64,000 bases of DNA from Negaprion brevirostris (taxonomy: Eukaryota), in contig JARDVH010000110.1 in the NCBI GenBank assembly GCA_030324005.1, positions 9,166,776 through 9,230,775 on the forward strand, in the 5' to 3' direction. Shown in pieces: positions 5,500 to 60,300 of this stretch (position 1 is the stretch's first letter; each line of letters opens with the position of its first letter). Made by a program: the position numbers and the translations under genes. Under the pieces are notes generated by a model, which worked only from the letters and a program-made list of their open reading frames with translations, did no database searches and was not told where the DNA came from.

Positions 5500-7460
5500 A
5501 CAGTATCGTCCCAGGCTAGCCGCAAGGACTCCCGCCGTCTATGGCAAAGTCTGCAAGATGTAACGGGCTTCAAGACGCTGGTTCCAACGCACCCCTTCCT
5601 GATGAGCTCGATGCATTCTATGCCTGTTTTGAGCACGCCCTACATCCTGGAAACCTTGGATGAACCTATATCGAGGTCACTATTGCAGATGTCAGAGCAA
5701 TCTTCTTCATGGTCAGTCCACGGAAATCAACTGGCTTGAATGGGGTAAACGCAGTAAGAAGTTTCACAACACCAGGTTAAAGTCCAACAGGTTTATTTGG
5801 TAGTAAACGCCACAAGCTTTCGGGGCTCTGATCCTTAGTCAAGTGTTTACCCCAGTTCAATGCCGGCATCTCCACGTTTTGAATAGGGTACCCAGGCATG
5901 CACTTAGATCCTGCACNNNNNNNNNNNNNNNNNNNNNNNNNNNNNNNNNNNNNNNNNNNNNNNNNNNNNNNNNNNNNNNNNNNNNNNNNNNNNNNNNNNN
6001 NNNNNNNNNNNNNNNNCATCTCCACGTTTTGAATAGGGTACCCAGGCATGCACTTAGATCCTGCACGGATCAGCTGGCGGGTGTATTCACACATGTCTTC
6101 AACCTCTCTTTACACCAGTCCGAGGTCCCTATCTGCTTCAAGAAGACAACCATCATCCCAGTTCCAAAGGAAAGCCAGGCAGCATACTTTTGATGACTGT
6201 CGTCTGGTGACTTGACATCCATCATTATGAAGTGCTTTGAAAGGTTAGTCATGGCACAAATCAATTTTAGCTGCCTAGACTGCCTGGATCCACTACAGTT
6301 TGCCTACTGCTGCAACAGGCCCACAGCCTGGCCCTGCACTCAACCCTGGAACATCTCGATAAACAAAGATACCTATGTCAGACTCCTATTTATTTAGTAC
6401 AGCTCAACCTTCATTACTCCTACGAAACCCATCTCCAAACCCCATGGCCTGGGCCTCACCACCTCCCTCTGCAACTGGATCCTGAACTTCCGAACCCGCA
6501 GATGACAATCAGTAAGGATAGGCAGCACCTCCTCCACAATCATCCTCAACACTGATGCCTCACAAGGCTCGTTCTCAGCCCCTACAACACCCCTGTCTGT
6601 CTATGACTATGTGGCCAAATTCCCTTTCAACTCGATTTTCAAGTTTGCTGATGATACTACCGCAGTGGGTCAAATCTTAAATAGTGACAAGATGGAGTAC
6701 GGGAATGAGAAAGAGAATCTGGTGAACTCGTGCAACAACAGTAATGTCTCCCTCAATGTCAACAAAATGAAGGAGATTGCATTTGACTTCGGCAAGCATG
6801 GTGGAGAACATGTCCCTGTCTACATCAATGGGGACAAAGTAAAAATGGTTGAAAGTTTCAGGTTTTTAGGTGTCCGGATCACCACCAACTTGTCCTGGTC
6901 CCCCCCATGCTGACACTATAGTTAAGAGAACCTACTAACGCGTCTACTTTCTCAGAAGACTAAGGAAATTTTGCACGTCAGTTTTGATTCTCTCCAGTTT
7001 TTACAAATGCACCATTAGAGAATTCTTTCTGGTTGTGTCACAGTTGCTGGTACGCTTCCCAAGACCGCAAGAAACTTCGAATGTAGCCCAGTCCATTACA
7101 CAAACTAGCCTTCCATCCATCGACTCTGTTTACACTTCCCGCTGCCTCAGCAAAGCAGCCACCATAATTAAGGACCCCATGCACCCTGGATGCACACTCT
7201 TCCACCTTCTTCCATGGGGAGAAAGATACAAAAGTCTGAGGCCACGTACCAACCGACTCGAACAGCTTTATCCCTGTTGCCATTAGACTTTTGAATGGAC
7301 CTACCTCGCATTATATTGATCTTTCTTGACACCCTAGTTATGACTGTAATACTACATTCTGCACTCTCTCCTTCTCTGTGAACGTAATGCATTGTCTGCA
7401 AATGCGCAAGAAACAATACCTTTCACTGTATGCTAATACATGTGACAATAACAAATCAGA
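5500..7460 (+). mobile_element. Rex1/Babar-like LINE, decayed RT region and 3' UTR
   Basis: ORF fragments CTDQLAGVFTHVFNLSL..VPICFKKTTIIPVPK, TSIIMKCFERLV, LDPLQFAY, IFKFADDTT (RT catalytic motif), VESFRFLGV. 3' tail tgtgacaataacaaatc. Frameshifts and stops are present. Confidence 0.85.
5741..5878 (-). mobile_element. Mini Penelope terminal-repeat element inserted in the Rex1-like LINE
   Basis: Same sequence as the ends of the Penelope element at 19528-21420 (caccaggttaaagtccaacaggtttatttggtag). Inverted ends tggggtaaac/gtttacccca. Flanked by ttgaatggggta / ttgaatagggta. Confidence 0.75.
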
Positions 7461-7812
7461 AACATTAACCAAATTTCACCCTTTCCCAATATTCCTTTAA
7501 TCCTTTTTCCCCTCAGGTCACCACCAGTGTTGTCTAGATTTGCTTTCAGAACATTTTGTTTTCTTTTTGTCAGTGCTCCCTCATTGTATCGAAGTTTCAG
7601 GGGCTGAGATGCTGCGCTCCATAATTGCTCCTCATGAGCTGTTTAAGTCTGGTACTCCTCGTGCACATATGCAAATGGACATTAGAGTGGTGTTATGAAG
7701 CAGAGATTAATTCCCCACTCTGAGAACTCTCACCACCACCCAAAGAGGAATAGCTTGCCTCATAATGTGTTAAAAATGTTTGAGAAGTAGTATAATCTGC
7801 TCTTCAACTTTT

Positions 7813-41307: not shown

Positions 41308-42710
41308 TCTTGTATTTGATTTATTATTGTCATGTGTATTAGTATACAGTGAAAAGCATTGTTTCTTGCATGCTATACAGACAAAGCATACCGTACATAG
41401 AGAAGGAGAGGAGAGAGTGCAGAATATAGTGTTACAGTCATGGCTGGGGTGTAGAGAAAGATGAACTCAATGAAGGTAAGTCCATTCAAAAGTCTAATAG
41501 CAGCAGGGAAGAAGCTATTCTTGAGTCGGTTGGTATGTGTCCTCAGACTTTGTATCTTTTTTCCCCACGGAAGAAGATGGAAGAGAGTATGTCCAGGGTG
41601 CATGGAAACCTTGATTATGCTGGCTGCTTTTCTAAGGCAGCAGGAGGTGTAGAAAGTGACAATAGATGGGAGGCTTCTTTGAGTGATGGACTGAGTTTCA
41701 TTCACGACCCTTTGTAGCTTATTGCTTCTTGGGCAGAGCAGGAGCCATACAAAGTTGTGATACAACTAGAAAAAATGCTTTCTATTGTGTATCTGTAAAG
41801 GTTGGTGAGAGTCGTAGCAGACGTGCCAAATTTCCTTAGCCTCGTGGGAAATTAGAGACGTTTGTAGCGTTCTTAACTATAGCATCAGTGCGGAGGGATC
41901 AGACAGGTTGTTAAGATCTGGACATCTAAGAACTTGAAGCTCTGGATCATTTCTACTTCTTCCCCATTAACATAGACAGAAGCATGTTCTCCACTACATT
42001 TCCTGAAGTCGATGGACTATCTCCTTTGTTGACATTGAGGGACAGATTATTGTTGTTGCACCAGTTCACCAGATTCCCTATCTCTTTCCTGTATACTGTT
42101 TCATTATTGTTTGAGATCTGACCCATTACTGTGGTGTCATCAGTAAACTTGAAGATCAAGTTGGAGAGGAGTTTGGCCACACAGTCATAGGTGAATAAGG
42201 TGTATATTGAGGGGCTGAGGGCAGAGCCTTGTGGGGCACTGGTGCTGAGGATGATTTGTGAAGGTGGTGTTGTTTGTTCTTTTACTGATTGTGGTCTCTG
42301 GGTTAGGAAGTTCAGGATCCAGTAGTAGAGGGAGAAATTGAGCACCAGACTGGTTTTGTAGAAATTACGTTGAAGGCTGAACTGTAATAAATAAATAGAG
42401 GTCTGACCTATTGTCAGACTTCTGTTTATCTTTGTTATCTAGATGTTCCACTGTTGAGTGTAAGGCAGGGAGATGGCGTCTGCTCTGGACTTGCAGTGGC
42501 AATTGGCAAACTGTCACGAATCCAGACAATCTGGGAGACGGGAATTGATTTGAACATGACTAACCTTTCGAAGCACTTCATAATGACGGATGTCAGAGCC
42601 ACCGGACAATAGTCATTTGCCTTAATGATTATTTTGCCTGGCTTTTCGTTGGTACTGGGATAATGGTTGTCATCATGAAGCAGATAGGGACTTCAGATTG
42701 GTGTAAAGAC
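41308..42710 (-). mobile_element. Rex1/Babar-like LINE, decayed
   Basis: WILNFLTQRPQSV, APQG..LSP, IFKFTDDTTV.G.I, RTHTNRLKNSFFP.AIRLLN. Confidence 0.85.
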
Positions 42711-44799: not shown

Positions 44800-45090
44800 G
44801 GTTGTGACGATTACGAGGAGGTCACAGGCTCAAGGTAAGATGGGCGAGGTTTGACTTGGAAATCAGAGGGACGTTTCTTACACAGAGGGTGGTGGGGGCC
44901 TGGAACGCACTGCCAAGTACGGTGGTGGAGGCGGACACACTGGGATCGTTTAAGACTTACCTGGATTGTCACATGAGCAGACTGGGAATGGAGGGATACA
45001 AACGAATGGTCTAGTTGGACCAATGAGCAGCACAGGCTTGGAGGGCCGAAGGGTCTGTTTCCTGTGCTGTTCTTTGTTCTTTGTTTCTGT
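44800..45090 (+). mobile_element. Young CR1-like LINE 3' end
   Basis: TR..R..V....F..RFLTQRVVGAWNALP with a (ttctttg)n tail. A near-identical 3' piece lies at 47241-47317. Confidence 0.75.
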
Positions 45091-46520: not shown

Positions 46521-48671
46521 CACAACCTCAGATTGTGACTTCACTAATAATGATGTGCAGCCCAGCAGTAATCATTTCACTGATTGGTTGTATAGCTCTG
46601 GAGGAGGCGCAACTTTGTGCAAGGCCTTAAAGATGTGGCAGGTGGGTGGGGGGTGATCTTGATCCCACGCTTGCCATCGGCGAGAATGGCAGTGGGACTC
46701 AAAATTGTCAAAGCTCCAGAAGTCGTAGATCCCGCTGTGACTTCTAATTTTCACAGGTCCCGCAATTCATTTCAGGTCCTTTTGGAGGAGATGTGCTGTT
46801 GCCAGCTGCAGCTCTCCACACTTGGCACCTCAAGAGAGGAACGGCCAGCCGCTCCCTGTTGACGTGAAGGTTACGGCTACCCTGAATTTTTACACCTCCG
46901 GCTCATTTCAGGCACCCAGTGGCAACTTAGTTGGGATCTCCCAGGTCTCCATGCACAGATGAGTGCAGCAGGATTTCCTGTATGCCCAGGCAGGACACTA
47001 CATAAATTTTGATGTGAGCCATGCACAGCAGGAGGCCTGGGCTCTTGGCTTCGCTTCCATTGCTGAGATTCCTTATGCCCAGGGAGCAGTGGACATGGCA
47101 CATATTGCCTCGCGAGCTCCACATGCAGGGCCGTAGCAATNNNNNNNNNNNNNNNNNNNNNNNNNNNNNNNNNNNNNNNNNNNNNNNNNNNNNNNNNNNN
47201 NNNNNNNNNNNNNNNNNNNNNNNNNNNNNNNNNNNNNNNNACATGAGCAGACTGGGAATGGAGGGATACAAATGAATGGTCTAGTTGGACCAGTGAGCAG
47301 CACAGGCTTGGAGGGCCAAATTTGAGATTGGTTGCCGTTTTCAAGATATGATAGACTAGTTGGTGCCGAATGGAAATTAGAGAGCAGTGTCTGCAATTTA
47401 GAGCCGGGTCTTGCAGGATTGAAATTAACAAGCTGTTCTACATACAGTTCTTCTGGTAGACGTTTGGAGCATTTTTCTGCAAGGGGCAGTTGATGCTAGA
47501 TCAATTGTAAATTTTAAATATGATTTTATAATTTTGTTAACTAATTAAGGTGTATGTATATGAGTTAGAGCACCAATTCATCTGAGTGGCTGAAAACATT
47601 CAAGCGTCTGAGTGGCCGTCTCTTATTCCTCTGTTCCTGGATTTCAGCTGTTTGATCAAGTGCAGTTCTCCTTGTGGTCTGTTCTATTGCACCAAAATAT
47701 CAGCACTGCTGGTTGCTTAAATGTTCTGAAACTTTGGAAGCCATTGAGTTCTTCTAGAAATGATTTAAAATGATTTGTTGTAAATTTGGATGAAATGCCA
47801 GTGATTTATGTAATTTGTAGATTGAGCCTGGTGTGAATTTTGAAGCCTGAATGATTTAAACCTCTATACAAGCCAGACATTGATTTACTGCAATTAATTA
47901 TTGCTTTTTTAGGGAATAGAAAGATTTGTATTGTTTGCTTCATATTTTATACTTGCCCTCTATTGTCAGGAAAGTAAGGAGCCTTCTCATTAAATTGGCA
48001 CACTAATCCAACTGATGAGTTATTTAGTAATATATAATAAGTAGTGTTAACTGGCTCCATTTGCTCCTCAGTCGAGTGAGCTGTATCAGCTGAATATGAT
48101 GGGTCAGTCCGAGATTTGCTAGATGTTAAGTGGAAAAATGAATGATTGACTGATTGCTTTCTCTTCATTAATAGGTATGGTTAGTATAATTGGACAGACA
48201 TTAGATTTCCTCCTCTGCTTTCCTTTTTTACTTGTGTTTTCCTTTCTGGCCTCTGATCCTCAAACTTCTGACAAACTCCAGTGCCACTATCTTAATTAGA
48301 ATTCATCAATCATTCCTGATTTCTCAATGCCTCAAATTTAAAATTCTCATCCTCATGTTTAATTCCCTTCAGGCTTCCCAACACCTCTTGCAATTCGCAT
48401 CTCTCTCCAAACTCTTGACTCTGACCTTTTGTAATCATCCCAACAGAGGCTGTGCTTCTGAAACTCTTGTATCACCTTCTCCTCTCTTGTATCACCCTCT
48501 TCTGTCTGAACACCCTATTTAAAATCCACCTTTTATTCAACTTTTGGTTACTCCTCCAAACAGCTCCATGTGAGCCCACATCAAATTAGCACAAATTTTA
48601 CAAGAGATAGAAAATAAACTTGTGCTAAAACAAGTGGAAAAATATGTAACTATATTTTTAAATTAGGGTTC

Positions 48672-48850: not shown

Positions 48851-50609
48851 TGAATGGCATGAAAATGTTCTCAAATCATTCAATTTATTTCAATAGTTCT
48901 TTGCTATAAAATTCTTTTAATGCCAAATAGCATATAAGTGTCTTTGCATGTCACTGAGAGACCGAGGACAGTAGGTGAAAAAAGGACGTATAGGAACTGT
49001 ACGAGGCCATTCAGCCCCTCAATCTTGTTGCACCTTTTTAACAAAATCACGCATGATCTTTGGATCAACTCCATCTACTTTATTTTGGCACTTATCCCTT
49101 ATTAACGGTACTCAGCAAAAATGTAACTCTCAGATAGACAGGTAGCCATTGACCCAGCATCCATTGCCGTTTTTGGAAGAATGTTCCAAATCATGCACAT
49201 ACTTGTATGTGTATCTATGTGTATGCTTGCTTCACAGCCTTTCTCCTGAAAGGATGGCCCAAATGTTTACCCGCCGTCCCCCCGCCCCTGGTCCAGAACC
49301 AGCAACAAGATGAAATTGTCTTCCTTTATCTACCCTTCCTTTTCCTGTTAATATGCTGACGATTTTAATAAGATCATGCCTTATCCTTCGAAATTCAGGA
49401 CAAAACAGCCCTACTCTGCATAACCTCGCTTGATAAATTAGTTAAATCTTCAGGACTTCATCCCTTTCTCCACTTATGTGATGGGTGCCAAGAAGTGCCA
49501 GGGCCTTGAACATATCACCTTGATGTGCAGCGGCTGTTCATTGACATCTCTGACCCTGGCACTAGTGAGGCCATACACCATCCTGGAGTCAGATCTTCAG
49601 CCACAGAAACGCCTTCCTCCTCCCCTGACCACTGAATCACCTCACAATCTCCCCAATTTGCCGTATGGTCAAGTCGCTTATAGTATCTGGAGTGTGGGTC
49701 GGACTGCATTCTTCTGGGGTGCCTGGACCCTTATGATCTTCCAAAATGGAATACCAGCTCGTTAGTGTTCATGTTGATCTGGACTATTGTTGATCTGTAG
49801 TTCCAATGGGTCCTTACATTTTGTGCAGACTCGGGCTTGATCAGTTTGATTGACAGGTCAAGTCATGTGACAGTGTGAAACTAGAATGACACAAAATAGC
49901 CAAGTCCAAAGCTTCTTTGAGTTTTAGGGATTAGTGTCTGTCCTTTTCCCTTCATTAAAGGTGGAGACCAGAATGTGCAAGGAAATTACTCAATTTCTCT
50001 GAGATCTGTTTTGGAGTGGTTCTTTCTCCAGAAGTCTTCTGTCTGAAATGTTGCTGATTTGAAAGCTGAGGAAGAGACAACCCTTTCTGCCTATGAGCTC
50101 GTCATACTGGGAGCTCCCAGATACTAGGTTTACTGTTGTGACGTTCTGCTTTGGGAAACATATCCTTTCTTTGAATTGCTCTCTTTGTCTCTGTCCATAG
50201 CTGTGAAACTCTAATGACCATGTGAGCAGACACGCTTGTGGTTCCAACATAACACATACAAATTTCAAATCATTCAACCATTAATCAATTGGAAGACATG
50301 GACTCCCCCTGTTAGGGTCAGTGTAACAATTCTCTCGGTGTCATAGGGTTTATATTTAGTGCCTCACTATAAATCAATGCACTTACTCCACGTCATCTTT
50401 ATAATTTCCGCACTGCTGCCTGGCAGTAAATTTTCCATTTTCTTCCCCTGATATCTGGGTGCCACATCCATGGGAACAATGACCAAATTCTGGATTGGCA
50501 GGATTCTGTCGGAGGTTGTAATCGATCATAATGGGGCTTTGTTACGTTTGAAAATGACAGCTTTTATTTTGGATTTCTGACATAAAGATTCTTGTAATTT
50601 ATTATATTT

Positions 50610-50948
50610 TCAGCATTTAACATGACGTGCTATTCCAGAAAAAGGAAACTGTATTATATTTTTAAACTGTTGCCTGAAATTCCTCTGCGTGACGGCATAA
50701 ATGCAAGTGTTTGTGGAGCAACTCAGGAGCTGCAGCATGAAGCCTACTTCAAGTATGAAAGGGGGAATGTACACATAAAAATACCCAAGATTAAAAAGTC
50801 GCCGCCACGTTGAATATATCATAAAGACAGACCACAAGATTATGAAATTCCCTGATATAGCAAATAACAAAACTATAGATTTCTGTCGACAATATATTTC
50901 TTGGTCCTTGTGATTATCCACTTTGCTCACAGTCCGTAGTCTCCTGCG
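50610..50948 (-). CDS. C-terminal fragment (ICL3-TM6-TM7-helix 8) of a class A GPCR, GPR139/GPR142-like; 5' part lost in a gap
   Basis: Open 112-codon frame RRRLR...D.EI..R.KSIVLLFAISGNFIILW...GFMLQLLSCSTNTCIYAVTQRNFRQQF, stop at 50610. NTxxY occupies the NPxxY position. Minus-strand AATAAA at 50563-50568. Confidence 0.8.
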   Translation of the reverse strand, partial: RRRLRTVSKVDNHKDQEIYCRQKSIVLLFAISGNFIILWSVFMIYSTWRRLFNLGYFYVYIPPFILEVGFMLQLLSCSTNTCIYAVTQRNFRQQFKNIIQFPFSGIARHVKC

Positions 50949-51164
50949 TNNNNNNNNNNNNNNNNNNNNNNNNNNNNNNNNNNNNNNNNNNNNNNNNNNN
51001 NNNNNNNNNNNNNNNNNNNNNNNNNNNNNNNNNNNNNNNNNNNNNNNNNATGTTGAGAGGTAGTAACTATAGTTGTTGATTGAGATCAAAAAATGTGCAA
51101 TTCATTGTTAGAGAACAAGATTGGAGGTCATTGGCTGAGAGAAGGATCATCAATCAGGTAGTTA

Positions 51165-51386
51165 GGTTTTACTTTTTTACTTCCTTTCTTTTAAGTTACA
51201 AAGCCAACGCTTAGACTGGACTGGGCGGACCCAAATCCATTCTTTGTTCCAAGGATCAAATTCCAATTGAATGCTATTCATGGTTCCTACAAGAGACAAA
51301 CCAGATCCAAGCTGAAAGATGAGGCATTGCGCCCAATCTTGGGCTTGATCTGATGCTTGATCTTAGCCAAAAGGCCGAGAAGCGAT
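51165..51386 (-). ncRNA. U2 snRNA-derived element (perfect nt 1-31, divergent body, A-rich tail)
   Basis: 51386-51356 reads ATCGCTTCTCGGCCTTTTGGCTAAGATCAAG, the U2 5' end. Downstream sequence aligns loosely with the rest of U2. Confidence 0.8.
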
Positions 51387-52494
51387 GGCCTTTCCAGATG
51401 TGAATTCAGAACTCCTAAGTCTTGGGCAAACTCTGCAGAGTTGGATACATGTGACACAAAATAGAGAATGAAATGGTTTGAAGATAGCTTGAGTGATGGA
51501 GGTGGCATCAGAGTCTAGTTGGAAATTAGAGGGAAAGGAAGATATGAATGAGTGGTGAAAGATCTAAATACCTTGAAGGAGAAACATTCTAGCTGCCAGG
51601 TACTGTTAGCAACTAGAGGCCTTCTCACAGAATTGGTGTATTTAAATAGGGTTGGTTTATAAGGCAGATGTTGTGAGGATACAATAGTGCACAGTGCCAG
51701 ACCTTTTCAGAATGAGTTGATAATCAGTTGATAAATAATTTGCTAAACTATTAACTGGGATTCATCTAATGAATCTTAGGGATTATACTGATGACAAAGA
51801 ATCATTAGTGAGTTGTTGACCAGGACTAGCAACATTGCTGAATATTTGTGTTCCTGGCAACTTTCTGATTGGATTACCAATTATACAATCGTTCCTTGGC
51901 TTTCACTTTCCTCTTCCTGTATGGATTCATGCTAAGGGCAGTGTAGGAGAGCAGGTCACATCACACCAATCTGATCAAGGCCCGACTGGTTATACAGACA
52001 ATCCTGAGAAATTATTTATCCAGGGTGTGACACATACTAATACAAGGTTATTTGGCTGTTAAATGCACCATACAGAATAACACTTACTGCAGAAAGGAAG
52101 AGGCCAGCTAACTGGCTGAAAGATCCTACACTGAACTAAGTCATACGGTCCCAAGGCAACGAGTTTGATTCCTGGGAAAATACCCTGTTAGTCTTGGTCA
52201 AGACTTTGATTAAAAAAACAAAATACTGCAGATGCTGGAAATCTGAAATGAAACAAAAATTGCTGGAAATACTTAACAGGTCTGGCAGCATCTGTGAGGA
52301 GCGTTAATGCTTTAAGTCTGTATGGCTCTTTTTCAGAGCCGTGTGATTAACCTCTGTGTCCTTAGGTACTGAAGGGGGAATTTCAGTCCAGGCATTTGGC
52401 TTTGTTGCAGTGTTTTGCTGCTAGAATCTGGCAGTGTAGCTGTGGAGGTTTTGCTCAGGCCATCTTCCCTGAGCTGAATCACAATTGTTACCAC

Positions 52495-56100: not shown

Positions 56101-56692
56101 GTACTTGAAATGCAAAGAGTGTGCAAAATGTAACCTCAGCAATGTGCAGTCTCAGTCGTTCTGACAGATTTTAACCACCTTGTTGCAAACCGCTAGGACA
56201 AATCAAGTATACTGAGTATCTTTCAAAATCTTAACATGCAATCTTAGCTATGGAGGTGCTCTAATACGCATTATTTATTTCCTAATCCTTCCAGTTTAAA
56301 CAAAGTTGGGTCATATTAATGGCCTGTTTTGTGTTAACAGCAGCTGGTTAGGTGTATTGGCCATTCTAAATTTTCCCTCCGTGTACCCAAACAGGTGCCA
56401 GAGTGTGGAGACTAGGGGATTTTGCAATGTGAATGTAATCCTACTTGTGACATTAATAACTAAACTTTAAACTGAAATGTGGATGTGAATCATCTCATTG
56501 CATGAATGGGGCTCGGTAATTATGGACAGAATTCTCTAGCCGCGCTGGTCTAGAAGCCAAAGTTTCTCACCTGACTGTCAATGGGGGTTTCACATTCTCT
56601 GCAACATGCCCACTAAAATTCCACTGGCGGGCAGTATGGGACAATTGTGGCCAATGACGAGAAACATCCTGCCGATTTATCCAGAATGTGGT

Positions 56693-57330
56693 TTGATTTG
56701 ATCTATTTTTGTCACGTATTAACTTACAGTGAAAAGTATTGTTTCTTGTGCACTATTCAGACAAAGCATACTGTTCACAGAGAAGGAAAGGAGAGAGTGC
56801 AGAATGTAGTGCAACAGTCATAGATAGGGTGTAGAGAAAGACCAACTTAATGTGAGTTACTTCCATTCAGAAGTCTGATGCAGCAGAGAAGAAGCTGTTC
56901 TTGTGTCAGTTGGTACATGACTTCAGATTTTTGTATCTTTTCCCAACAGAAGAAGGTGGAAGAGAGAATGTCCGGGATGCATGGTGTCCTTAATTATGCT
57001 GGCTGCTTTGCCGAGACAGTGGCAAGTGTGGACAGAGTCAATGTATGGGAGGCTGGTTTGCGTGATGGATTGGATTATATTCATGACCTTTTGTAGTTTC
57101 TTGCAGTCTTGGACAGAGTAGGAGCATACCAAGCTGTGATAAACCAGAAAGAATGCTTTCTATGGTGCATCTGTAAAAGTTAGTGAGGGTTGCAGCTGAC
57201 ATGCCAAATTTCCTTAGTCTGAGGAAGTAGAGGTGTTGACGTGCTTTCTTAACTATAGTGTTAGCATGGGGGGAGCCAGGACAGGTTGTTGATCATCTGG
57301 ACATCTAAAAACTTGAAGCTGTCAACCCTT
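56693..57330 (-). mobile_element. Rex1/Babar-like LINE 3' portion
   Basis: QDCKKLQKV.N..QSITQTSLP.IDSV..CHCLGKAASIIKD.MHPGHSLF.LL. Same 3' UTR as the copy starting at 41308. Confidence 0.8.
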
Positions 57331-60300
57331 TCTTGTAAACTTGCGCAGTTATCCAAAGCTGGAATTGAACCTGTGTCCCTGATGCTGTGAGACAGCAGTG
57401 CTAACCAGTGTGTCACTGTGACGTCCAATTTTTCATATATCTATTTAAAAAAGGAATAAAAAGGAGAAGCCCACTCCCTAACCATCAAAGAAATCTTTAG
57501 TTGTAAACATGGTCCATTTGACTGTAACACATTAATAAGGGCTGGTTTGGTAGTGTTGGCTGGACAGCTGTATCGTGATGCAGAATGATGCTAACTCTGC
57601 AGGTTCAATTGCTGTACCAGTTGAAGGCCCTGACTTCTCAACGTTGCCCTGGTGATCCTCGGGTTAAATCACCACCAGTCGGCTCTCCCCCTCTAAGAGG
57701 AGAGCAGCCATGGTCAGCTGGGACTGTGGCAACTTTACCTTTAATACATTAATGATTTTTGTACTCGGATGTTTGATTATAGAGTTCTGTGTTTGAAACG
57801 AGCATTTATTCTGCAGCACAGAGGCTGCTCAAACTCTTCATAAAAATAAATGAAGATACCTAAAACTAAAATAATGTACTAAATGCCCTTGAGTTGGACA
57901 ATGCTTAGGAAATAACAGAGATGTTAGCTGCTGGTCTCGAACATAGGTTACCCCAACATACACATTCTTATTACAGCTGAGTACCCTATCAGACATCGGC
58001 CATCTCTTCAGCCCTGAGGATTTTGTTTTTTTTACTGCTATGTTAACTTAGCTTTTTTTTCTCCCCTTCGATTTGCAGTTTAAGGCAGACAGCCATCACT
58101 GTGGCAAAGCTCAATATCAATGCTAATCTTTGACTTTAGCTTTCCAGTGGATTGCAGTAAGTAATGATTTATATTTGTGCTGAAGGGAGATGGGAAGTTA
58201 TTTTTCTCCTTCTTGTTGCAATAGGAATAACTAACAGTACCAAGAGCAGAGTAACAGCCAGGAAGCGGTCTGATTGCTCAGATGTGTGCTGAGTTGTGCC
58301 TAGCAGAGCCCAATATGTTACAGCCATGATGGGAAAATATATTGAACTGCTTGCTGCTTCTAACAGGGGTCGTTATTGTGATAGATGCTAGATGTAGAAA
58401 GAAATCTCCCTCCTTTTCATCGCTTATTGGGTTTCATTGTAACTGAAATCTCCAGGGTACAAAGCTCAATGATTAATTTGTTAATCGACTGAAAAGATGA
58501 CAAAGATGACTAGAAGCTTTTTTGCTTGTAAATTCAACCAGTTTAGCATTGAAATTTGTTCAGTGACAGTTTGTCTGGCAGCCCACCTGCCCATTGGACT
58601 CACTCGCTCTATTTTATTCATCTCCAACTCCCACTTCCCACCTCTCACCTGTCTTTCCCTCCGTCTCTTTCCCCTTCCCACTCACCTCCCTGCCCTTGTC
58701 TTCCTCCCTCTCGTTGGGGGGCCCCCCCCCCCCCCCGCCTTCGTTTTGTCTTATTACTTGACCATTGATTTTTTTTTGAGGGTAGATTTATTTTAGTAGA
58801 ATACAAAATTGTAAACTAAAAACACAATTCCAAGGTAGTACCCCTAACTGACCAGACAGAGGGAGTGTGTGTATCAGTTCAAAGGTTAATTGATGAGCTA
58901 TCTGAAGGAGATCCCACGGGTTTCAGCTCTTCACTTGATTCTCATATTGTAAACTTGTGGCTCTGTAGCTTGCACCTTCGGCTCTGTTCAAGTCCCACTC
59001 CCCAGATAAAAGCAAATTACTGTGGGTGCTCGAGTCTGAAACCAAAAGAGAAAACCCTGGAAAATCTCAGCTGGTCTGGCAGCATCTGTAAGAAGAGAAA
59101 AGACCTGATGTTTCTCATCTAGATGACCCTTTGTCAAAGCTAAAAGACATAGAAAGTGGGAGATGCCCTTTAGGGAAGGAAATCTGCTGTCCTTACCTGG
59201 TCCATCTTTACATGTGACTCCAGAGTCACAGCAATGCGATTGACTTCTAATTGCCCGCTGAAGTAGCCCAGCAAACCACTTGGTTCAAGGATAATTAGGG
59301 ATGGACAATAAATGCTGGTCTAGCCAGTGACGTCCACCTGACCTGTTCCATTGCTCTACTTTTCCCAGAGCCTTAAAGTATCCTGAGAATATGGGTGGGG
59401 GCTGCGCAAGCCAGGCTGGGCCTGAGTTACAGCTGCTGGCTAGTGTAACCTGGTGGAGGACAGCGGGCCAAAGTTTATTCCTAGGTATGGCAGTTCTGAA
59501 CTCTTAGCTAATAGCACCTGGTGGAGACTACCTGTGTCTTTTAAAGACTATGTAATTACGATCAGGAAAGAGCAGAGTGCAGAATTGCAAGCCCAAACAA
59601 ACACCTTGGGCAACCTATGACTGTACAATCCTTATTTTGGATTGAATGTTTCTGATTGGATAAGATGTTAAACTTGTAGAATGGATAAGTGATTAGAAAA
59701 TGAAATGTAATATTAAAATTGGGATGGAAGCATTTTGGTAGGAAGAATAAGGCAGGGGGGAGTCACTCCTTGAAAATGAGTATCCAAGTTGAATGGAGGA
59801 GTTAAGGAATCAGAGGATGCAGATAATTAAATTATAATTAGTGGCTCAGGTTAATGCAATAAAACAGGTTTTGCCTCAGCAAAGACTAAACAGGCTTTTT
59901 TCTCAGAGTGATAAAAGTCTTTTAAGATTATGAAAGTGTTTGGTAGAGTAAATGATTCAATAATTCCTGCACACACATCTCACATGCACACACATCTCAG
60001 TCACCTCAGCATGAACAATGTGGCCACGTGAGGGATGGGTTTTGTCAGCTTTATACCATGGTAGGGCTGTCATTTAGTTGTAATGAGTTCAGTTATTGCT
60101 TGAGATGTTAAATTGTTTTCTAGAAATGGAATCATTTGAGAAGGGAATGGAAGTGAGAAGGGAATGTCCATATAAAAAAACTTATCAATTGGTCATGTGT
60201 CAGATGTTGAAAACTTGACCTGTGGTGGGTTGAAAAGAAAGAAAGAGTTGCATTTACCTAGTACTTTTCCAATCACACGACAAACTTTCTACCACCAATG

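Follow-up and report, generated by a model that had tools for sequence, protein, structure and literature searches.

The window (the whole stretch of 64,000 nucleotides that was analysed) belongs to a gapped, repeat-rich animal scaffold with 19 runs of N and decayed pieces of reverse transcriptase; its repeat types suggest a shark or ray. Its sole Rfam match of note is to U2 snRNA at 51386-51191 on the minus strand, while a tRNA scan of the window found none. At this locus one U2 sequence is stacked on another, in two layers of unlike divergence: read along the minus strand, exact U2 nt 1-31 is followed by a 13-nt spacer, diverged U2 nt 21-160, and an A-rich tail. The unit is about 225 bp long, the longest frames across it measure 61-75 codons from stop to stop, and there is no sign of coding. 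Element nt 1 corresponds to window position 51386, and element nt n to 51387 - n. The following features were assigned:

51387-51392, minus strand: candidate 5' extension (the six bases before U2 nt 1), predicted to pair with 51205-51200 as the 5' arm of a closing stem
51356-51386, minus strand: head, exact U2 nt 1-31 with two intact CpGs (RF00004 alignment and 31-mer matches)
51343-51355, minus strand: 13-nt spacer, predicted 5' arm of a long hairpin (identity tests; pairing probability of 0.68-1.0 to element nt 75-87)
51197-51342, minus strand: body, an older diverged U2 copy, U2 nt 21-160 (92 of 134 aligned bases equal to those of reference locus L001, about 69% identity)
51316-51340, minus strand: equivalent of the branchpoint-interacting stem-loop (U2 nt 23-47), predicted to be locked (9 of 10 register positions paired)
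51300-51354, minus strand: predicted 21-bp hairpin of the spacer and an arm derived from U2 nt 52-65, around the locked stem-loop (-23.1 kcal/mol)
51325-51330, minus strand: branch-point recognition motif, 3 of 6 bases changed (alignment to U2)
51250-51256, minus strand: Sm-site equivalent, two U-to-C changes (alignment to U2)
51213-51243, minus strand: equivalent of U2 stem-loop III, predicted to be kept (-12.3 versus -13.4 kcal/mol in U2)
51200-51211, minus strand: residual 5' strand of U2 stem IV, predicted to pair with positions -6 to -1 and U2 nt 1-6 (folding with flank)
51168-51193, minus strand: A-rich tail, 18 A and 5 G in 26 nt (base count)
51426-51445, minus strand: weak PSE-like site at -57, doubtful (score of 5.9 on a 6-site matrix)

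The head equals U2 nt 1-31, as the first-pass annotation had read it: RF00004 aligns from model position 1, and the same 31-mer is present in 66 loci, which were obtained by scanning metagenome contigs with the head sequence and served as U2 gene references. Canonical U2 nt 32-46 then follows in 36 of the 66; among viral contigs, the head pattern had no match. The head covers stem-loop I and the U6-pairing region. At the divergence of the body, identity at 31 of 31 positions has a probability of about 1e-5 to 1e-6, which upholds the earlier argument that even decay fails to explain the contrast between head and body. Since U2 nt 32-62 show a mean conservation of 96% across the 36 loci continuing into U2, yet 35% of the U2 21-65 part of the body is changed, the contrast is independent of the choice of reference. 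The 7 bases adjoining the head (51387-51393) match the reverse complement of U2 nt 11-17 at every base (chance of about 0.35%), an observation that is not independent of the closing stem described below.

Homology of the body to U2 is established by sequence comparison. With transition-aware scoring, its z-scores against nine fish/vertebrate-type U2 loci are 7.5-10.8, a level reached by none of 1000 shuffles and none of 1178 window tiles; plain identity scoring against the same nine gives 4.1-8.2. A tenth such locus (L044) yields 3.8 and -0.4 with the two schemes, and 13 more distant U2 loci yield 0.8-7.3 (23 of the 66 loci were scored). Element nt 91-192 alone outscores 1132 of 1132 tiles for each of four references. 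The earlier statement that the rest of the sequence still aligns with U2 thus holds, and the alignment does not end at nt 31, given that the body and its 3' part alone both score above all tiles. The changes are largely transitions, again as claimed (31 versus 11 transversions); a transition excess of this size is unremarkable. Within the U2 21-65 part (51300-51342), 11 of 13 transitions are A-to-G or U-to-C, for which stem strengthening, editing, or chance could be responsible.

With alignments from element nt 36 on, all three references used place the homology between element nt 45 (U2 nt 21) and element nt 190 (U2 nt 160-162). Element nt 45-56 align to U2 nt 21-32 without gaps (7 identities, 5 transitions, and no transversions), so the diverged copy begins at U2 nt 21. 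This bears on the insertion that had been described behind the head. Its first component, a repeat of the end of the head, is confirmed as the spacer, in which U2 nt 24-31 recur exactly (element nt 38-44 are the same as nt 26-32). Its second component, a GCCCAA-GA-TTGGGC hairpin, is rejected as inserted sequence: the bases are the old copy's own U2 nt 21-32. As first written, this hairpin has a 2-base loop and is absent from the predicted fold, where its bases pair within the longer hairpin.

Scoring with RF00004, suggested earlier as a check, gave a divided answer: the alignment starts at model position 1, but the whole match reaches 39.3 bits versus a gathering score of 46. On the body alone, Rfam reports no U2 at E-values up to 10. 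Covariance models built here for the U2 body see it weakly (E = 0.024 with structure and 0.0016 without), and at default filters such a model gave no match to the body; one model (R1) was left unused, its structure not being that of U2.

The branch-point pairing and the Sm site are indeed destroyed, as previously noted. The branch-pairing GUAGUA reads GCAAUG (51330-51325) and is shifted by 24 nt from its register after nt 32, whereas the Sm site AUUUUUG reads AUCCUUG (51256-51250); both motifs have changed at about the rate expected from the overall divergence. Stem-loop IV is missing, with U2 homology stopping at U2 nt 160. The unit therefore falls outside U2 snRNA genes (RF00004) by bit score, branch-point register, Sm site, and stem-loop IV, despite its identical nt 1-31, its partly kept stems IIa, IIb, and III, and two substitutions, A30G and U43A. 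In the available parts of PMC13019295, where the BSL (branchpoint-interacting stem-loop) is nt 23-47, these are the two BSL-stabilising U2 mutations (M1/M2 mutants), and in human cells U2 with U43A or with A30G + U43A barely supports splicing of the reporter, if at all, and its RNA levels are low.

The canonical U2 helices were mapped onto the element via a sequence-only alignment. Of 32 scorable pairs, 27 are kept, versus 21.4 +/- 2.4 under random change (P = 0.012, or 0.004 when the count of stem changes is fixed). Double compensatory changes, at 3 versus 1.6 expected, show no excess (P = 0.21). The branchpoint-interacting stem-loop, which combines A30G and U43A with a double change of U32-A38 to C-G, is predicted to shift from -0.8 to -8.7 kcal/mol (P = 0.01-0.03). 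Around it, the predicted hairpin comprises 19 Watson-Crick and 2 G-U pairs, and its -23.1 kcal/mol compares with -8.6 kcal/mol under neutral change (P = 0.0012, or 0.0008 when the spectrum is matched), a level reached by 5 of 4336 window tiles; the hairpin region had been picked after folding. Wild-type U2 furnished with the spacer already pairs at -6.9 kcal/mol. Because the spacer may be a fold-back copy of the opposite arm (11 of 12 bases equal the reverse complement of the element 75-87 arm), pairing was tested without it: the P value for pairing of wild-type U2 nt 23-31 to the altered arm is 0.010, and element nt 45-87 alone give P = 0.11. The stem-loop III equivalent (neutral P = 0.06) is not significant alone.

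The predicted closing stem joins bases -6 to +6 with element nt 176-187 over 11 bp, with pair probabilities of 0.74-1.0 in the context of 10-80 nt of flank. Relative to neutral change, P is 0.002-0.008 with five reference U2s, versus 0.06-0.10 for the head alone, and 59 of 11958 decamers drawn at random from the window equal the upstream flank in pairing. As the stem needs six bases that are absent from U2 RNA, it implies either a master with a 5' extension or a 1-in-200 coincidence; judging from these folds, the start of the unit probably lies six or more bases before U2 nt 1. Compared with shuffles, the unit with flank has z = -3.04 (1 of 400) and without flank z = -1.67 (18 of 300). In neutral simulations, whose ancestor was taken from non-shark U2 loci and is a stand-in outside nt 21-65, the unit with a 7-nt flank that was likewise picked after folding shows z of -3.2 to -3.3 (0, 2, and 4 of 450 simulations); head, spacer, and body together give P of about 0.06, and the body alone has no added stability (z of about -0.6, 103-111 of 450). 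Between the fresh head and the body, little pairing is predicted (0.03-0.18). As evidence, the predicted structures are moderate, and they suggest that the signal reflects adaptation to pair with head-side sequence, not general upkeep of the U2 fold.

The A-rich tail of the first-pass annotation is present and begins three bases past the end of the U2 homology. Comparable tracts (18 A in 26 nt) occur in 7 of 3296 window tiles; the tract is impure and may represent a decayed poly(A) or simple-repeat tail, or a 3'-box. The search for target-site duplications that had been recommended found none in the flanks of this copy, which have only a 6-mer in common, and there is no duplication around the head. 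No remainder of U2 lies downstream, with two stray 12-mers elsewhere in the window. The 196-nt unit contains 5 CpGs, 3 of them in the body, versus 4 in 814 nt upstream and none in 145 nt downstream, so the unit should be younger than its flanks or protected. The 400 nt upstream contain no CpG, versus 3-60 in 12 U2 gene flanks (158-400 nt). The score of the PSE-like site, on a matrix from six sites, is reached by 2.5% of background tiles, and leave-one-out scores of true PSE sites range from -3.0 to 16.5. An octamer is absent upstream, which is a weak test, as only 2 of the 12 true U2 flanks have one.

The window holds one copy of the element (self-BLAST and U2-body models, with covariance runs on 31000-64000), as expected either way, and the junction pattern has no match in the metagenome contigs. 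An 849-nt stretch including the unit was matched in sequencing runs (24 rows from 10 studies): one row, possibly the source, shares at least half of the words, 11 runs of five further studies are near-identical with shares of 0.32-0.43, and 12 rows have shares of 0.12-0.16. The latter two sets of shares are unplaced along the stretch, so that a shared element, shared flanks, or low coverage fit alike; by 31-mers, the stretch consists to 20% of the unit, 38% of the unit plus downstream, and 58% of upstream sequence. No RNA run is listed among the runs matching it.

A parallel to the fold was found among the metagenome loci, 24 of which (at least 120 nt long) contain a U2 gene or head that is interrupted somewhere from nt 31 to nt 52. 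For 10 of them (L006, L024, L028, L031, L039, L042, L045, L051, L058, and L065, about 4-5 independent groups), pairing of the following 45 nt with the U2 head has P <= 0.02 (200 shuffles each), with duplexes of -15.7 to -31.9 kcal/mol. Most of the head-pairing 5' ends lead into an open frame. Two frames were tested: that of L050, outside the ten, encodes a ZCCHC3-type RNA-binding domain, presumably a mark of Tx1-type ORF1, and that of L058 has no match. On these predictions, it is as if Keno-like transcripts folded back on their own U2 leader; the available passages of the cited papers contain no mention of such a fold-back. The body of the element has no homology to the ten 5' ends (scores of 18-34, i.e., background). 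The U2 head is cut at nt 31-32 in 4 of the 24 interrupted loci. In L013, L038, and L053, a head cut at this point precedes an AT-rich non-U2 unit, and in L038 and L053 it sits directly after a 17-base match to U2 nt 21-37, a Keno/Utopia-type target; judged by sequence, the three possibly form another U2-headed non-autonomous family.

Among known systems, the SINEU families provide the closest comparison. According to the accessible parts of Kojima 2015 (PMC4494074), they are found only in crocodilians and were built up as U1/U2 pieces were repeatedly added at the 5' end, and Tx1 LINEs probably move them; heads with internal duplications, 5' extensions of 31-42 nt, and insertion with or without duplication are described (e.g., SINEU-3 has a 32-bp U2 head, and SINEU-2 also inserts without duplication). 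The same source reports U2-headed Tx1 families in crocodilians. In their available portions, PMC5786205 and PMC5381603 cite SINEU via Kojima 2015 alone, the latter as crocodilian. The element resembles SINEU as a short (<500 bp) non-coding unit with a U2 head of about 31-32 nt and stacked heads of unlike age; a U2-derived middle (as in SINEU-3), an A-rich 3' end (impure here), short head duplications, a possible 5' extension, and the frequent lack of target duplication are further likenesses. By contrast, U2 in SINEU-3 has an internal deletion of about 50 bp, whereas here a second head is followed by a nearly contiguous U2 21-160; the parts available describe no refolding around the head in SINEU, and the element is known from one copy. 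By analogy, the U2-on-U2 layout would be better explained by the recurrent 5' addition that Kojima describes than by insertion of a hairpin.

Keno (Tx1 clade) and Utopia (RLE clade) target U2 genes and have U2 from nt 39 as 3' flank, as given in the accessible part of PMC4640811. They supply elements with a fresh U2 5' piece, several Keno-like loci of the metagenome set have 5' ends that pair with the U2 head, and they would be plausible mobilisers; unlike the element, they are autonomous, kb-long, and flanked by U2 nt 39 onward, none of which is seen here. Doucet's groups II-IV reportedly comprise 3'-truncated and chimeric snRNA retropseudogenes. Such pseudogenes are common according to the available text of PMC4476161, and they share with the element a truncated snRNA head joined to another retroposed piece and an A-rich end, but usually have target-site duplications and a LINE, SINE, or mRNA as partner instead of an older refolded U2. 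A tailless U2 retropseudogene is likewise a poor description, since U2-derived DNA follows the head and no duplication flanks the unit. The literature searched contains no U2-derived SINE or U2 variant of cartilaginous fishes, and 12 of 24 whale shark supplements contain no snRNA or Tx1 match; Repbase, Dfam, or the SINEU supplements may already hold the family.

With a probability of roughly one half, the locus is one copy of a retroposon resembling SINEU that took its head anew from U2; a U2-derived retroposon with a refreshed head was among the origins suggested in the first-pass annotation. An old copy of U2 would have turned into a master RNA that a LINE, probably one of Tx1/Keno type, mobilised in trans. 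Because U2 nt 1-47 hardly change in evolution, the body of this RNA could have adapted gradually to pairing with U2-head sequence even as the head was being exchanged. The exchange could occur through a template switch to U2 snRNA or through read-out of a U2 gene, leaving the spacer as the stub of an earlier head or as a slippage repeat at the junction, and caging of U2 nt 23-47 might keep the RNA out of splicing. The present copy would then have inserted, without target-site duplication, into DNA that is poor in CpG and lies upstream of a GPCR-like gene piece. The homology of the body, the exact head, the A-rich tract at the U2 end, the SINEU-like build, and structure beyond neutral change speak for this origin, as do the higher CpG content of the unit than of its flanks, an upstream region without the CpG richness of U2 gene flanks, and the head-pairing 5' ends as a parallel. 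It is opposed by the single copy in the 64-kb window, the missing junction in metagenome contigs, and the lack of a target-site duplication. The predicted stability of the body alone, which does not exceed that of neutral decay, and the mostly unpaired fresh head also count against it, as do an impure tail beside a perfect head and the closing-stem bases that lie upstream of U2 nt 1 and would be missing from a head newly copied from capped U2 RNA. If the element belongs to a family, snRNA-headed SINEs extend beyond crocodilians, and its layers and fold, seen in one copy, bear on Kojima's question of SINEU transcription and repeated head replacement.

The same layers might have arisen once, in a composite pseudogene, which we regard as unlikely: an old polyadenylated U2 retrocopy would have decayed in place and later received a 3'-truncated U2 cDNA (nt 1-31) at its 5' end. 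The joint would then reflect microhomology priming or a template switch with a slippage repeat, in keeping with a spacer that is a tandem repeat of the last 7 bases of the head and with the other heads cut at nt 31-32. A transition ratio near 2-3 to 1, a body that alone is not unusually stable, and the frequency of truncated and chimeric snRNA pseudogenes (PMC4476161, in its available text) agree with such decay. The hairpins would be due to chance, to inherited U2 self-complementarity, for which the -6.9 kcal/mol of wild-type U2 with the spacer is an argument, or to palindrome correction at the DNA level. However, three separate pairings each have a probability of about 1% or less under neutral change, and two changes in the hairpin turn Watson-Crick into G-U pairs, which DNA-level correction should disfavour. 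Neither the lack of a duplication around the head nor the three CpGs of the body, in flanks with almost none, would be expected. A one-off pseudogene would be of little importance.

An expressed, selected RNA built from U2, with the U6-pairing head kept exact, other splicing signals shed, and a closed fold around a locked branchpoint stem-loop, appears unlikely on the structure predictions; it would count as a non-Sm RNA gene of U2 descent, or else as the master of a family of retroposons in which the U2 sequence is caged. The former, which is doubtful to the same degree, supposes a single- or low-copy gene from a duplicated U2 gene, in which internal duplication of nt 21-31 let the body refold while selection kept nt 1-31 exact (e.g., for U6 pairing). 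The exact head with both CpGs, the structure-favouring changes, the lack of a target-site duplication, and a PSE-like site near the expected position are compatible with it, as are the near-identical 11 runs of five further studies, even if their shares are unplaced on the stretch. Yet the PSE score is weak, CpG is absent from the 400 nt upstream, no octamer is present (little as this weighs), and the closing stem needs six bases upstream of the normal start. Loss of the Sm site and the poor splicing and accumulation of U2 with U43A or A30G + U43A in human cells (PMC13019295, as far as available) also disfavour such a gene. It is very improbable that the unit is a remnant of another mobile element, be it a Tx1/Keno LINE with a U2 head, represented by its 5' end, the footprint of Keno/Utopia in a U2 gene, or a miniature DNA transposon whose terminal inverted repeats are imperfect. 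Crocodilian U2-headed Tx1 families (PMC4494074, in part) and two ends that pair over 11-12 bp would favour such a remnant; against it, no LINE frame follows the head, the next coding piece is GPCR-like, and the body is unlike the ten head-pairing 5' ends. Two of these forms were rejected: a footprint by the lack both of a 3' flank of U2 nt 39 onward and of LINE coding sequence after the head, and a miniature transposon by a right 'inverted repeat' that is U2-derived, U2 homology extending past that repeat, and the lack of a duplication. Both BSL-stabilising changes and the head-pairing 5' ends lead to the idea that RNAs carrying U2 evolve to hide it from the spliceosome. If true, caging, which may also occur at the 5' ends of several U2-inserted elements, would be a general strategy of U2 parasites.

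About 250 bases downstream of the element, on the same strand and beyond a gap of uncertain true length, lies the C-terminal part of a GPCR-like class A frame (50948-50613, minus strand). It has an atlas score of 0.96 to a cluster with 16% 7tm_1 members and no Pfam match, and the surrounding DNA is richer in CpG (15 in 50300-50949). Literature searches found no paper on a GPR139-like expansion in sharks. Elsewhere in the window, the 3' part of a decayed LINE occurs in three copies that are 74-79% identical (6107-7475, 41311-42709, and 56685-57333), with an RVT_1 match at 41956-42438. Identical or near-identical stretches beside gaps (5867-5916 and 6017-6066; 44971-45050 and 47241-47320) are likely scaffolding overlaps.
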